Below are positions 163 through 27,133 of a DNA stretch of 59,585 nucleotides, piece by piece (within the stretch, counting starts at the first letter, position 1; every line of letters starts with the position of its first letter). The stretch is from Patescibacteria group bacterium (GTDB lineage Bacteria; Patescibacteriota; JABMPQ01; JAQVVF01), in contig JAQVVF010000006.1 in assembly GCA_028699085.1 (NCBI GenBank), positions 1 to 59,585 on the forward strand. The letters are read 5' to 3'. The notes under the pieces were generated by a model. It saw nothing but the letters and a program-made list of their open reading frames with translations. It searched no databases and had not been told where the DNA came from. The position numbers were made by a program, and so were the translations under genes.

Positions 163-194
163 TTTAGATACTTGAAATGATACAGGAGGGAAGA

Positions 195-506
195 ATGGAG
201 ACAAAATCCAGAAATCTAGCAATTGCAACTGTTTGTGTCGCAAAAGCAACTACTTTTACTCTTGACCGCCTGACAAGTATCGATGAAGAAAAATATGCTT
301 TGGAAGCAACTGAAAATGGTTATTCGATTAGATTTCATAGATTTTCAGTTGGCTTGTACAGGAAAGATAACACTTATTATTTTAAGTCTGATGAAGGCGT
401 TGTTGTGAAAGATGAACCTATCGCAAAAAATATGACAAGAGCAGCAAATACGCTTTTTAATCAGGTAATGATTGTTTTGGCAAGGCAGACAGGAGGAGGA
501 CAGTGA
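195..506 (+). CDS. hypothetical protein (103 aa), GGAGG-led orphan
   Basis: GGAGG at 185-189 lies 5 nt before ATG 195, which I prefer over the ORF-track start at 177. No motif recognised. Confidence 0.6.
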   Translation: METKSRNLAIATVCVAKATTFTLDRLTSIDEEKYALEATENGYSIRFHRFSVGLYRKDNTYYFKSDEGVVVKDEPIAKNMTRAANTLFNQVMIVLARQTGGGQ

Positions 507-781
507 TGCAGGTTGATGACCAGATGGATATGACACGTTTTGCAAATAGAAGAGAAGCTCTTCTGAAATGTGCCGAAATTACTGACCTTTCAGAAGACGC
601 AATTTCTTTGCTGCATGCGCGACAGATCAGAACTATTGCTGATCTAGTGAAGGTTGCTAACAAAGATTATTTTTGGGAAAGAATGTTGAGAGCTGATATT
701 GCAATTTTTGATAGATTTTTGCGAAACCATGCCTTGCATCGCTGGATGAGCGAGCAAGAAGTAGACGCACTTTTGACTTAA
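506..781 (+). CDS. hypothetical protein (91 aa) with a helix-hairpin-helix-like segment, translationally coupled to the upstream ORF
   Basis: The upstream TGA stop and this ATG overlap (TGATG at 504-508). GGAGGAGG lies at 492-499. ISLLHARQIRTIADLV resembles the HhH of the RNA polymerase alpha C-terminal domain; this similarity is weak. Confidence 0.55.
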   Translation: MQVDDQMDMTRFANRREALLKCAEITDLSEDAISLLHARQIRTIADLVKVANKDYFWERMLRADIAIFDRFLRNHALHRWMSEQEVDALLT

Positions 782-804
782 CAGGTTTTTACCTGTTTTT
801 TTTA
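781..804 (+). terminator. intrinsic terminator
   Basis: ACAGGT tttt ACCTGT followed by a T8 run. Confidence 0.7.
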
Positions 805-969
805 TTGACTCACCAACTAATACTTTATCAAATATCATCGAATGCATTTTCGAATAATGCGCTTTATAAATATTTGTCGCTATAAATTGCCAATAAGTTG
901 GCTTATAGGTATTATTCAAAAAAACATAAGAGCCATTTGAAAAAGTATTGGAGCAAGGCCATAATTCTC

Positions 970-998
970 TTGCCAAGAGTTAAAAAACTAATTATAAT
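970..998 (+). promoter_or_regulatory. sigma70-like promoter of rpsA; predicts a leaderless or near-leaderless mRNA
   Basis: TTGCCA at 970-975, 17-nt spacer, TATAAT at 993-998. ATG 1006 lies 7 nt after the -10 box. Confidence 0.5.
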
Positions 999-1005
999 GG
1001 TCTAT

Positions 1006-2262
1006 ATGAAAAACACTAAACAATTAAAGACACTTGACAATCTTGTCAGTGAAAAAGTCAAAGAGACAGAAATCGAGCAGAAAAAAGAGCAGGAAGCTCT
1101 AATGAGCCAATTAGAAAATCAGGTTGTACCAAAACCTGGCGATACTTTGGTTGGCAAAGTTATTGAAATGTCGAAGAATGCTGTTTACATTGATCTAGGC
1201 CAATATGGTATTGGCGTAGTTCGTGGCAAAGAGCTTTGGGAAAGTTTAGACGTATATGGCGAATTGAATGTTGGCGATGAAGTTGAAGCCACTATATTAG
1301 AAATGGAAAATGAAGAAAATATTTTGGAATTAACATTCAGAAAAGCAACAAAGAAAGAAGTTTGGGATGAATTAAACGAAAAAAGAGACAAAAGAGAAAT
1401 CATTACAGTCAAAATACAAAGCGCAAATAAAGGCGGATTATTAACAACATTATTTGGAATTCCTGCTTTTATGCCTGTATCTCAATTGACACCAGAACAT
1501 TATCCTAGAGTTGAAGGCGGAGATCAAGACAAGATTTTATCTAAATTACAGTCTTTCATCGGAAAGAAAATGAAAATTCAAATTGTTACAGCAGATCCTA
1601 AGGATGAAAAGTTGATTATATCTGAAAAAGAAGCTGCATTCACAAAGCAAAAAGAAAAGATCGGAAATGTGAAGGTAGGCGATGTTGTAGAAGGCGAAGT
1701 TTCTGGAATTGTTGACTTTGGTATTTTTGTAAAATTTGATGGTCTTGAAGGATTAGTTCATATTTCTGAATTATCTTGGCAAAGAGTTGATGATCCAGCT
1801 AATTTGGTTAAGATTGGCGATAAGGTAAAAGCAGAAATTATTGGAATTGAAGATTCAAAGATTACATTATCAATAAAGAAATTACAAAAAGATCCTTGGA
1901 TTGAGGCAGTAAAGAAATATAAAGTTGGACAATTGGTAAAAGGAATTGTAAAAGAAGTTAAACCATTCGGTATTTTTATTCAACTTGATAAAGATATTCA
2001 TGGATTAGTCCATGTTTCTGAATTACCATTCAATATTACTGATGCAAAAAAAGAATTAGTAATGGGATCAGAAAAAGAATTTAGAATATTATCGATTGAG
2101 CCAGGAGAACACAGATTAGGATTAACTTTAAAATTAGATTCGGAAAAAAAAGAAGAAGTTGCTGAAGAAAAGGAAGAAAAAAAGGAAGTTAAGAAAGATA
2201 AGAAAGAAGAAAAACCTTCTGAAAAGAAAAAAGATAAAGAGAAAAAAGAATCTAAGAAATAA
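1006..2262 (+). CDS. rpsA: 30S ribosomal protein S1 (four S1/OB repeats, K/E-rich tail)
   Basis: Repeated S1 motifs: GDTLVGKVIEMSKNAVYIDLG, GDVVEGEVSGIVDFGIFVKF..GLVHISEL, GQLVKGIVKEVKPFGIFIQL..GLVHVSEL. The ORF-track start at 898 is a TTG upstream of the promoter; ATG 1006 (or 997) is preferred. Confidence 0.9.
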   Translation: MKNTKQLKTLDNLVSEKVKETEIEQKKEQEALMSQLENQVVPKPGDTLVGKVIEMSKNAVYIDLGQYGIGVVRGKELWESLDVYGELNVGDEVEATILEMENEENILELTFRKATKKEVWDELNEKRDKREIITVKIQSANKGGLLTTLFGIPAFMPVSQLTPEHYPRVEGGDQDKILSKLQSFIGKKMKIQIVTADPKDEKLIISEKEAAFTKQKEKIGNVKVGDVVEGEVSGIVDFGIFVKFDGLEGLVHISELSWQRVDDPANLVKIGDKVKAEIIGIEDSKITLSIKKLQKDPWIEAVKKYKVGQLVKGIVKEVKPFGIFIQLDKDIHGLVHVSELPFNITDAKKELVMGSEKEFRILSIEPGEHRLGLTLKLDSEKKEEVAEEKEEKKEVKKDKKEEKPSEKKKDKEKKESKK

Positions 2263-2273
2263 TAAATTTGAAG

Positions 2274-2296
2274 CCAGCGTGAAAACGCTGGTTTTT
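2274..2296 (+). terminator. intrinsic terminator
   Basis: CCAGCG tgaaaa CGCTGG followed by TTTTT. Confidence 0.7.
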
Positions 2297-2399
2297 GTTA
2301 CCTGAATTTGATGATTTTTAACTTTAAATCTTAACTGTATTAGAAAGAAAAGCTAAAACCTTGATAACTTTACTGATTAGTGATAAAATATCGCTACTT

Positions 2400-25859: not shown

Positions 25860-25860
25860 T

Positions 25861-25992
25861 AAATCCTAAGCACTAAATCCTAAATTCTAAACAAATTTAA
25901 ATGACTAAAGTAGAAATGCTCAAAACCTTTTAAACATTTGGATATTTGAGTTTTAAATTTGTTTAGGATTTAGAGTTTAGAATTTAGGATTT
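25861..25992 (+). repeat. long intergenic hairpin (AAATCCTAA word family) between rnc and the DUF456 gene
   Basis: Left arm (25861-25901) is AAATCCTAAGCACTAAATCCTAAATTCTAAACAAATTTAAA. Right arm (25952-25992) is TTTAAATTTGTTTAGGATTTAGAGTTTAGAATTTAGGATTT. Confidence 0.6.
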
Positions 25993-25999
25993 TTATATC

Positions 26000-26494
26000 A
26001 TGGAAATATTTTTAACGATATTAATTATCATTTTAATCGTTGCTTTAATTGTGACTGGTTTGATCGGCACGATTGTTCCGATGTTGCCTGGCGCACCGTT
26101 GATTATTGCTGGAATGATTATTTATGCGATTTGGGATAAATTTCAGCACATGTCTGTTTGGACTTTTGTTGTATTATTAATTTTAACTATTTTTCTGGCT
26201 GTAATTGATTATGTCAGCCATTATATTGGAGCAAAAGCATACAAAGCTTCAAAAACTGCTTTGATCTGCTCAGCTATTGGCGGTATTATCGGACTTTTTA
26301 CTGGCAATGTAGTTGGATTTATTTTTGGACCGCTAATCGGAGCTGTAATTGGCGAATTAATTGATTCTCAAGATTTGAGAAAGTCGTTAAAAACTGGAAC
26401 TGGCGTGTTTGTTGGATTTTTGTCAGGAACATTAGTCAAATTTGTGATTGCAATGATTATTGTTGTGATATTTATTGGAAGCGTGATATTCTAG
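26000..26494 (+). CDS. DUF456-family membrane protein
   Basis: Four TM helices and the family-typical LPGAPLIIAG start region. Confidence 0.75.
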   Translation: MEIFLTILIIILIVALIVTGLIGTIVPMLPGAPLIIAGMIIYAIWDKFQHMSVWTFVVLLILTIFLAVIDYVSHYIGAKAYKASKTALICSAIGGIIGLFTGNVVGFIFGPLIGAVIGELIDSQDLRKSLKTGTGVFVGFLSGTLVKFVIAMIIVVIFIGSVIF

Positions 26495-26521
26495 TTTTAA
26501 GTTGACAGATATAAGTTACTA

Positions 26522-26544
26522 ATCGGCAAATGCCGATTTTTTTA
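26522..26544 (+). terminator. intrinsic terminator
   Basis: TCGGC aaat GCCGA followed by T7. Confidence 0.65.
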
Positions 26545-26576
26545 TCTTTACTTGCCTTAAACTGCTAAAAAATAAT

Positions 26577-26600
26577 AAAAAAACCTTGATAAACAAGGTT
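26577..26600 (-). terminator. intrinsic terminator of the rlmE-orphan operon
   Basis: Minus strand: AACCTTG tttat CAAGGTT followed by T7. Confidence 0.7.
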
Positions 26601-26604
26601 GGTA

Positions 26605-26883
26605 CTAAAGTATTCTCCTCCTAATCCACGAAACGATTTCATTTTTTTGTCTAGCAACGAGTGCTTCAATATTTTCTGAAAGTTTGAACTCATGAAATGA
26701 ATGAAGATAGATGCTGATATTTTCTCCCTGACAAAGAATTTCATTGTTCTGTTCATCAACTGACATCTCTAATCTGATTCTACTTCCGACAGCTTTTTCT
26801 CCACGAACAATTCTAAAAATTTCATAAATTTTGGCATTCTTGTCATAAGCGCCAACCCAAACAGGAAATCTTCTACCGAGCAT
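26605..26883 (-). CDS. hypothetical protein (92 aa), GGAGG-led
   Basis: Internal ATG at 26883 chosen because GGAGG lies at 26892-26896 (8-nt spacer). Overlaps the upstream ORF by 11 nt. Confidence 0.55.
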   Translation of the reverse strand: MLGRRFPVWVGAYDKNAKIYEIFRIVRGEKAVGSRIRLEMSVDEQNNEILCQGENISIYLHSFHEFKLSENIEALVARQKNEIVSWIRRRIL

Positions 26884-27133
26884 TTTCTTTGCCTCCTTCT
26901 TCCTTTTGTTCACTAGGCGCTTTTCTTTGAATAATGCCGCACATACTGCCACCCTCAGTAAGATATGAACACGCATCAAAAAGATCTTTCCAGGTCTGCT
27001 CATCAATTTCTGGCAACTCACTTTTATCTCTGTTTCCGTTTGAATATGGAGTAACTGCACACCAGAAATCAATCATTCTTAATTCTTTACCGGCCAAAAA
27101 ATCACGAATTGCTTGTGTTGCAGTCCAGACCAT
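26873..27133 (-). CDS. hypothetical protein (86 aa), GGAGG-led
   Basis: GGAGG at 27139-27143 lies 5 nt from the ATG, immediately next to the rlmE stop codon (27148-27150). Confidence 0.55.
   Translation of the reverse strand: MVWTATQAIRDFLAGKELRMIDFWCAVTPYSNGNRDKSELPEIDEQTWKDLFDACSYLTEGGSMCGIIQRKAPSEQKEEGGKENAR

Follow-up and report, generated by a model that had tools for sequence, protein, structure and literature searches.

Why does a bacterium that starts most of its genes without a Shine–Dalgarno (SD) sequence keep a canonical one in front of a scattered minority? The question is raised by a stretch of 59,585 nucleotides (nt), in the following called the window, which is contig 27 of the Patescibacteria genome G000 (1.167 Mb, 29 contigs, 32.1% G+C). 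An initial annotation, made from the letters alone, had pointed to 14 open reading frames (ORFs) behind a GGAG(G) box and had suggested that they could be a horizontally acquired set with a foreign initiation signal. We report here that SD-led and SD-less genes form two classes of different composition throughout this genome, that the SD is conserved between species, that the genes behind it are under purifying selection, and that they turn over in fixed slots, one of which is found empty in related strains. The most probable explanation is that two initiation regimes coexist and are split by gene class: a core that does without the SD, and an SD-led minority that would comprise a conserved set and flexible cassettes.

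All 14 starts indeed have the box 4–9 nt upstream. Twelve of the boxes read GGAGG or longer, only those at 16900(-) and 17627(+) are limited to GGAG, and the predicted pairing with the 16S rRNA tail ranges from -9.3 to -13.9 kcal/mol. This tail had been said to retain its anti-SD, and it does: the 16S rRNA gene (32796-34416) ends with GGATCACCTCCTTT (34403-34416, +), identical in a sister species of the same genus (G002) and in a genome of the same order (G007). The statement that housekeeping genes lack an SD also held, as no window gene outside the 14 has a positioned GGAGG; the SD-led genes all lie within the first 27.2 kb. The reported contrast in G+C content (GC) is real, with a median of 0.370 for the 14 ORFs against 0.327 for the other 51 window genes (Mann–Whitney p = 1e-4) and a GC at third codon positions (GC3) of about 0.31 against 0.237, but the range of 40–48% given for it was overstated: the values run from 0.325 to 0.485 and just five of the 14 ORFs reach 0.40. 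ORF 6583-6948, named as the AT-rich exception, is one at 0.325. Near-consensus promoters and clean terminators had been noticed as well. Indeed, the best sigma-70 matches between positions 1 and 20000 stand before SD-led ORFs, with 12 of 12 positions matched at 17553-17581 and further top matches at 17539-17512, 9000-8972, 19924-19951, 134-162, 16972-16944, 16084-16056 and 11590-11618. A hairpin with T-tract follows most of the 14 ORFs, and the same region holds 26 terminator-like sites, compared to 10.8 ± 3.7 in shuffles.

For the whole genome, genes and starts were taken from a purpose-written dicodon log-odds caller, which gave 1144 genes with a closed 5' end. When GGAGG is accepted at a spacing of 3–10 nt before any start candidate, 117 of the 1144 genes are SD-led and 1027 are not, and since the SD is thereby allowed to choose among start candidates, some 25–30 of the 117 are probably chance (a positioned GGAGG precedes 0.64% of all ATGs). 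The SD-led genes have a higher median GC (0.370 vs 0.317, p = 1e-33) and GC3 (0.30 vs 0.23) and are shorter, with a median of 160 vs 266 amino acids (aa). A strict set, in which GGAGG must stand 4–9 nt before the first start candidate, contains 67 genes where about 6 are expected and repeats the contrast (0.372 vs 0.317, p = 6e-26). By excess over mock windows, the genuinely SD-led genes number about 60–85 in G000, 100–120 in G002 and ~15 in G007; the excess at a pairing of -10 kcal/mol or stronger is 82, 118 and 17 genes, respectively. Roughly 5–10% of the genes would pair strongly with the intact 16S tail. The classes also differ in their layout. A promoter with at most two mismatches is found for 44% of the SD-led genes and 19% of the others, a terminator for 43% vs 12%, an orientation against the local majority strand for 48% vs 16%, and an SD-led neighbour for 41% of the SD-led genes, where about 19% are expected. 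Members of paralogue families are rarer among them (8.5% vs 28%).

The scan bears out the expected correlation with base composition and phylogenetic distribution: the SD-led genes are GC-richer and seldom found in the same-order genome. Their share climbs from about 2% of the genes below 32% GC to 60–90% above 40%, which raises the possibility that the SD is structural compensation only, needed wherever a start region is GC-richer and folded, so that any GC-rich gene would gain one. This steep climb fits such a scheme, and so does the predicted folding of the start regions, about -7.5 kcal/mol for SD-led and -3.5 kcal/mol for SD-less genes, a difference that persists within GC-matched bins. 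However, among the genes with a GC of at least 0.38, only one of 21 conserved genes is SD-led, compared to 42 of 63 non-conserved ones, and GC alone is thus insufficient. The GC-rich conserved genes without an SD have open start regions instead; inspection of their N-termini by eye suggests MreB-like, SSB-like and IF1-like proteins and ATP synthase subunits among them. In a logistic model, conservation predicts the SD status about as strongly as GC does, and the strongest SDs belong to HU, bS21 and pilins, none of them notably GC-rich. Since sequence does not tell cause from effect, the SD might moreover allow structure instead of compensating for it. We consider pure compensation unlikely for these reasons. 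GC as the sole cause of the signal is ruled out by the same conserved genes together with control pentamers of equal composition, which are rare upstream in every GC bin.

How, then, do the core genes start? Upstream of the SD-less genes, G makes up 5% of the bases at -10 to -1, A about 60% at -6 to -3 and T 59% at -1. Additionally, SD-like sequence is avoided in core start regions, because pairing with the 16S tail is weaker there than in mock windows: in 636 conserved genes it reaches -6 kcal/mol or stronger in 5.3% of the SD windows and 11.6% of the mock windows (Wilcoxon p = 1e-24). A -10 box close to the ATG had been taken in the initial annotation as a sign of leaderless mRNAs for several housekeeping genes. 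This layout is confirmed for rpsA, where the promoter TTGCCA-17-TATAAT (970-998, +; -10 box 993-998) ends 7 nt before the ATG at 1006 (layout 970-1008), and similarly for ftsH (3398), the gene at 5681, the HNH gene (10113) and rpsP (30686). Genome-wide, however, it is limited to a minority, and the general rule is an A-rich, G-poor, unstructured leader combined with SD avoidance. A TANNNT box ends 6, 7 or 8 nt before the ATG in 123, 71 and 59 genes, compared to about 45 at other spacings; at 6 nt this is 14% of the SD-less genes vs about 5% at other spacings. The excess at leaderless spacings amounts to roughly 120 of 854 SD-less genes, -35 matches are somewhat better where TANNNT stands at leaderless distance, and perhaps one SD-less gene in seven has the leaderless layout. 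The core would use two modes, leaderless starts with the -10 box ending about 6–8 nt before the ATG for some genes, and A-rich, G-poor, unstructured leaders for the rest.

Is the SD foreign to this cell? Some of the host's own conserved genes carry SDs stronger than those of the window. The strongest pairing among conserved genes is that of HU (-22.7 kcal/mol), followed by a type IV secretion system (T4SS) pilin (-20.6), a type IV pilin (-20.1), a DUF4870 protein (-19.2) and bS21, encoded by rpsU (-18.7), and the motifs are extended, as for example in AAAGGGGGTGA. These five would form the conserved SD set. For rpsU the pairing is -18.7, -18.2 and -17.6 kcal/mol in G000, G002 and G007, in each case in the top 1% of genes (rank 7 of 1144, 11 of 1201 and 10 of 1077). 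In G007, HU, pilin, DUF4870 and rpsU head the pairing list despite few other SD-led genes. Across the phylum, a pairing of -13 kcal/mol or stronger is reached by rpsU in 19 of 29 genomes and by HU in 23 of 30, compared to about 4% of neighbouring ORFs (3.9% beside rpsU). High expression as the sole meaning of the SD was considered and rejected: it fits HU and the pilins, but rpsA and rpsP have no SD while rpsU has one. A further conserved gene with marked anti-SD pairing (-14.7 kcal/mol) is FtsZ-like, by eye from its N-terminus (G000 contig C20, 102906-104054, -).

The idea of a horizontally acquired set with a foreign signal is thus only partly upheld. The set is distinct, flexible and at least partly exchanged, but its SD is kept in 88% of orthologues at a synonymous divergence (dS) of ~1, and HU, bS21 and two pilins of the host have stronger ones. 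We take the SD to be a native signal, not a foreign one. The other suggestion of the initial annotation, an SD that marks a specially regulated accessory regulon, may hold and has become more interesting through the SD of rpsU.

A strong SD on rpsU in a genome whose core genes otherwise avoid SDs recalls the Bacteroidia. In these bacteria, bS21, bS18 and bS6 keep the anti-SD sequestered and SDs occur less often than by chance; only rpsU retains one of -14 to -21 kcal/mol, through which it is autoregulated via ribosomes that lack bS21 (Jha et al. 2020, PMC7797042; McNutt et al. 2023, PMC9976891; Naeem et al. 2026, PMC13000453). The likeness extends to several points: the CCUCC anti-SD is retained, with GGATCACCTCCTTT in all three of our genomes, SD-like sequence is rarer than chance in core starts, the leaders are A-rich, and the extended SD of rpsU (-17.6 to -18.7 kcal/mol) falls within the Bacteroidia range. 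The mechanism of the Bacteroidia is further characterised by purified ribosomes that do not recognise the SD and by a 3' tail bound to the platform. One may therefore ask whether the SD-led set is a specialised-ribosome regulon, in which the anti-SD is normally hidden on the 30S platform in a bS21-dependent manner and the extended SD of rpsU serves its autoregulation. In that case, mainly the bS21-poor ribosomes, whose anti-SD is free, would translate HU, the pilins and the cassettes, and the SD would act as a conditional switch for the accessory genome. The retained anti-SD, the SD avoidance and the A-rich leaders speak for such a regulon, as do the high rank of the rpsU SD in three genomes and its pairing of -13 kcal/mol or stronger in 19 of 29 Patescibacteria, which matches the -14 to -21 kcal/mol of the Bacteroidia (PMC9976891). 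The strong rpsU SD is kept even in G007, which is nearly devoid of other SD-led genes. Additionally, a canonical strong HU SD is commoner where bS21 was detected (25 of 30 genomes vs 6 of 16, Fisher p = 0.003), although the lineages in this comparison are not independent and the non-detection of bS21 may be a false negative.

On the other side, bS21 of our organism has a strongly basic C-terminal part, with a net charge of about +8 counted from the sequence, whereas Bacteroidetes are marked by a less basic C-terminal domain of bS21 and by Tyr54 (PMC7797042); one Tyr is present in our protein. The occlusion residues described for Bacteroidia further comprise bS18 Phe50/Asn56/Gln58 and the C-terminal helix of bS6 with Trp100/Arg103. 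We are also dealing with a different phylum and with dozens to about 100 further strong-SD genes (60–120 in this genus), while there is typically one in Flavobacteriales. Finally, bS21 of E. coli promotes SD recognition rather than blocking it, so that any effect could go in either direction. We therefore give such a ribosome-based switch, with bS21 controlling its own synthesis via the rpsU SD, only a low probability. If it were true, a specialised-ribosome switch over the accessory genome would operate in a second, very large bacterial lineage, and the SD system would have disappeared or been rewired in lineages in which bS21 was lost, several of which carry a C-rich box before HU. According to Tsurumaki et al. 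(PMC9297842), some groups of the candidate phyla radiation (CPR) have lost bS21 and the anti-SD motif. In four genomes without detected bS21, HU has no G-rich SD and shows a C-rich box 8–15 nt before the ATG, namely ttttttAACCCCAcgtcattATG in L292 (G065), ttttttAACCCCAtcatcctATG in L294 (G044), cttCCCCCttcatcctATG in L293 (G017) and ccactAACCCAcgccattATG in L299 (G086). The box may belong to an altered SD/anti-SD pair.

Returning to two regimes split by gene class, we can follow the classes through relatives of the organism. The genomes G002 and G007 were used whole, together with a further congener (G001) and three metagenome contigs of related strains, L257, L258 and L259, of which L257 and L258 are 93–97% (about 95%) identical to the window. 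In G002 the split is even stronger than in G000, with 189 of 1201 genes SD-led and a GC of 0.370 vs 0.313 (p = 1e-58). In G007 the accessory SD class is almost absent (11 positioned GGAGG vs about 5 expected), with the same 16S tail. The pool of cassettes appears to differ strongly in size between families. A counterpart in G002 is detectable for 60% of the SD-led genes of G000 (median identity 56%) and 81% of the others (84.5%); in G007 the numbers drop to 10% and 62%. When the gene is SD-led, its G002 orthologue is SD-led as well in 88% of the cases, compared to 1.2% for the other genes. The ratio of nonsynonymous to synonymous divergence (dN/dS) between G000 and G002 (dS ~1) is 0.23 for SD-led genes and 0.088 for the others, and 0.22 vs 0.071 against the strain contig of about 95% identity; each of the 56 SD-led orthologue pairs of G000 and G002 has a pN/pS below 1. 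We regard the SD-led ORFs on these figures as real, selected and fast-evolving genes, whose SD is itself maintained.

One alternative is a purely vertical origin, in which the genes are old residents that diverge in place under weak or diversifying selection, with no exchange and with their GC held by selection. Reciprocal best hits in G002 exist for 59% of the SD-led genes (median identity 58%), the window examples sit in the same slots, and the GC of orthologues is correlated across a dS of ~1, all of which is compatible with such residents. The slots themselves tell a different story. The window is collinear with G002, and the SD-led genes stand in the same gaps, 31–69% identical or unrelated, between flanking core genes of 75–100% identity. 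Among 654 syntenic slots, SD-led genes occupy 49 in both species, 41 in G002 only and 17 in G000 only.

One slot lies between tig and a CBS-domain gene. In the window it contains a cassette (19910-20984, +) composed of the promoter TTGGCA-16-TATAAT (19924-19951), a GGAGG box, the orphan ORF 19990-20853 (+, 287 aa, GC 0.485), hairpins and a T-tract, flanked by the tig terminator (19880-19909) on one side and by the promoter of the CBS-domain gene on the other. G001 has a 197-aa and a 91-aa gene at this position, and G002 an 89-aa and a 141-aa gene. All of these genes are SD-led with a GC of 0.43–0.49, and the first genes of G000 and G001 are unrelated. The promoter of this slot is conserved in G000 and G001 even with different ORFs downstream of it, a point in favour of vertical descent. 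The slot is filled in L259 and empty in L257 and L258, where the tig terminator runs directly into the promoter of the CBS-domain gene. Because of this empty site, the borders of the cassette can be set at about 19910 and 20984, with terminator T-tracts at the ends; the only repeat seen at both borders is the T-tract TTTTTTGTTT. Two further genes distinguish the related strain from the window: a 129-aa gene with TTGACA-17-TAATCT and GGGAGG, inserted between rpsA and the ATP_bind_3-domain (tilS-like) gene 2361-3344, and an AGGAGG-led 136-aa gene beside rlmE, which is absent from the window. Over the roughly 35 kb that were compared, this adds up to three strain-level indels, all of SD-led genes, and for one of them the empty site could be aligned. 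The ordinary core genes of this stretch do not vary in presence; otherwise only two small genes of the 23S_rRNA_IVP family do. A clean empty site in a strain of about 95% identity, unrelated proteins in the same slot of three congeners, the restriction of the strain-level indels to SD-led genes, and a phosphofructokinase (PFK) whose nearest relatives, at 40–45% identity, lie outside the Patescibacteria, are difficult to reconcile with exclusively vertical descent, which we hold to be doubtful.

The strain-variable genes of the 23S_rRNA_IVP family are small and AT-rich and have no SD; in the genome, this paralogue family has nine members. The copy at 5273-5641 of the window is missing from the related strain, which has another copy (L257 8512-8856) between orf133 and hppA that is absent from the window.

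Could the pattern be an artefact of chimeric binning or assembly, or of spurious ORFs in GC-richer spacers? The assembly has 29 contigs and the gene calls are home-made. However, SD-led and core genes are interleaved on the same contigs, promoter, SD, ORF and terminator stand in register, and the pN/pS values below 1 in all 56 orthologue pairs are those of genes. An assembly or binning artefact is rejected because metagenome contigs of independent origin and two further assemblies from the genus are collinear with the window, and we regard artefacts of any of these kinds as extremely improbable.

The flexible part of the SD-led minority would thus consist of small, GC-richer, fast-evolving and mostly orphan genes that are organised as promoter-SD-ORF-terminator cassettes. 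The cassettes would sit in either orientation in fixed slots between core transcription units and would be gained, lost or replaced between species and strains. We infer that their SD acts as a portable, context-independent start signal, which together with promoter and terminator could form a portable expression kit. It would allow new or rapidly changing genes with more structured mRNAs to be translated without a tuned open leader, and their GC excess may stem from exchange with a GC-richer gene pool, combined with something that slows its decay.

Several observations weigh against this reading. The SD-led set is inflated by the choice among start candidates, as stated above for 25–30 of the 117 genes, and the accessory class is lineage-variable rather than universal, because G007 has just ~15 truly SD-led genes. 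The GC and GC3 of orthologues are correlated (rho 0.81 and 0.66) across a dS of ~1, a persistence that is not to be expected from simple import with subsequent decay. For most cassettes, searches of protein databases identified neither a donor nor relatives. The portable role of the SD is our inference. We also identified no mobility genes, integrase, attachment site or end signatures at the cassettes; no search was aimed at integron-like or attC-like sites.

Phage morons and genomic islets are single genes or pairs of genes with their own promoter and terminator that stand in either orientation between two conserved genes. Their base composition is unlike that of the surroundings, their presence varies between close relatives, and the Lawrence–Ochman amelioration model describes how imported genes change. 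The cassettes resemble them in their atypical composition, own promoter and terminator, free orientation, and presence or absence with an empty site. In contrast to morons, they reside in a bacterial chromosome and not in a prophage, and have no PHROG matches. In contrast to both, their GC excess persists across a dS of ~1 instead of decaying, and their translation signal differs from that of the host core genes.

A second comparison is offered by GeneMarkS-2 (Lomsadze et al. 2018, PMC6028130), which, in the parts of the paper considered here, defines a group B with an A-rich non-SD motif, a group C in which the first genes of operons are leaderless, with a Pribnow box about 10 nt before the start, and the rest carry SDs, and a class of atypical genes. 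Our genome shares with this scheme the -10 box at leaderless distance on part of the genes, the A-rich upstream signature on most others, and a compositionally atypical minority of about 10% of genes. It departs from group C as there described, in which leadered genes use the SD: the leadered core genes here lack and avoid it, and the SD is found almost exclusively on the atypical, flexible class and on a handful of conserved genes. Those parts of the paper mention neither a coupling between SD and atypical genes nor Patescibacteria.

We found no published description of SD usage classes in Patescibacteria. New here are the empty site and indels at strain level, the SD state kept in orthologues, the SD avoidance of the core, the phylum-wide extended SDs of rpsU and HU, and the parallel to the Bacteroidia. 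Tools for gene finding and expression usually rely on a single start signal for a whole genome, whereas the signal is class-dependent here, which affects start-codon annotation and the calling of small ORFs across a phylum that holds a large share of bacterial diversity. As a simple marker at the sequence level, the presence of an SD could furthermore point to the flexible genome of these mostly unculturable organisms, where the orphan cassettes are the best candidates for strain-specific interaction with a host. The SDs of rpsU and HU, combined with SD avoidance elsewhere, turn the operation of the Bacteroidia bS21/anti-SD circuit in Patescibacteria into a question that can be tested in culturable members of the phylum, for example Saccharibacteria in co-culture. 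Lastly, persistent GC-richness in fast-evolving genes of an AT-biased genome is a poor fit to the standard picture of import and decay.

What the SD-led genes encode can be said for a few of them. The initial annotation had recognised one cupin among hypothetical proteins, and this was correct: the cupin alone has a Pfam match, and the other 13 window ORFs have no match in Pfam, PHROG or PADLOC. Among ten large SD-led proteins elsewhere in the genome, PFK alone exceeds the curated Pfam cut-off, a TCAD9 match being sub-threshold; thymidine kinase is likewise SD-led. The nearest relatives of PFK among species representatives belong to Omnitrophota, Actinomycetota and Bacteroidota. It is part of a cluster of four SD-led genes with a GC of 0.42–0.57 on G000 contig C8 (about 23.9-29.0 kb), which also encodes a 299-aa Ala/Pro-rich protein with CxxC pairs that is zinc-ribbon-like by eye. 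A search of 5.8 billion proteins found no relative of the 287-aa orphan of the tig–CBS slot, and a search of 1.8 billion representatives gave two weak partial matches. The orf133 family is confined to this genus in the 16 genomes of the order that were searched. AlphaFold models are poor for both, with a predicted local distance difference test (pLDDT) score of 46 for the orphan and 47 for the orf133 family.

The remaining SD-led units of the window are distributed as follows. At its left end lies a two-gene cassette (134-797, +) with the promoter TTGACA-17-TAGTAT (134-162), ORF 195-506 (103 aa, GC 0.37), the overlapping ORF 506-781 (91 aa, GC 0.40), each behind GGAGG, and a terminator at 780-797. 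Both genes, which have no Pfam, PHROG or PADLOC match, are syntenic in G002 at 32% and 56% identity, compared to 96% for the adjoining rpsA. ORF 6583-6948 (-, 121 aa, AGGAGG; unit 6581-6948), with a bidirectional terminator at 6581-6598, was passed over by our gene caller and is found in a related strain contig. Next comes a cassette at 8470-9000 (-) with the promoter TTGACA-17-TATACT (9000-8972), GGAGG, ORF 8518-8928 (136 aa, GC 0.37) and a terminator at 8487-8470; its ORF has no tblastn match in G002 or G007. ORF 9101-9361 (-, 86 aa, GC 0.37; unit 9085-9361, terminator 9102-9085) shares 31% identity with the syntenic SD-led gene of G002. The cupin cassette (11590-12199, +) has its promoter at 11590-11618, GGAGG, ORF 11649-12119 (156 aa, GC 0.41) and a terminator at 12180-12199. 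Its product is a cupin with an FdtA/WxcM-like C-terminal domain, and the G002 counterpart, 43% identical, is likewise SD-led.

Between hppA and tig, an islet of five SD-led units occupies both strands (15535-18456). It comprises the ORFs 15608-16009(-), 16111-16356(-), 16376-16900(-, GGAG only), 16996-17478(-) and 17627-18418(+, GGAG only), with promoters at 16084-16056, 16972-16944, 17539-17512 and 17553-17581 and terminators at 15590-15574, 15561-15535, 16997-16979 and 18435-18456. Three of these ORFs have an N-terminal module in common, the family of which is seen in this genus alone (three of 16 genomes of the order), and in G002 the slot is filled by other SD-led genes. Finally, two overlapping SD-led ORFs lie 3' of rlmE (26605-27133, -), namely 26873-27133 (86 aa, GC 0.41) and 26605-26883 (92 aa, GC 0.35), both with SD-led orthologues in G002.

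Three minor observations were made in addition. The hppA position of contig L310 (4126-5942; JGI 3300026177) was called as products of 480 and 77 aa without a Pfam match, compared to an H+-pyrophosphatase of 660 aa; a frameshift, a disruption of the gene or an error of assembly may be the cause. The intergenic sequences at 19820-19878, after tig, and at 21513-21599, after the CBS-domain gene, have at least 10 further copies of 75–94% identity in G001 and G002 and have the appearance of hairpin or terminator-like repeats from a dispersed family. A group I intron (Rfam RF00028, 85 bits) at 9890-10096(-) adjoins tRNA-Val(GAC) (9559-9635, -) and the small gene 10113-10487(+), a borderline HNH endonuclease match with the leaderless layout described above.

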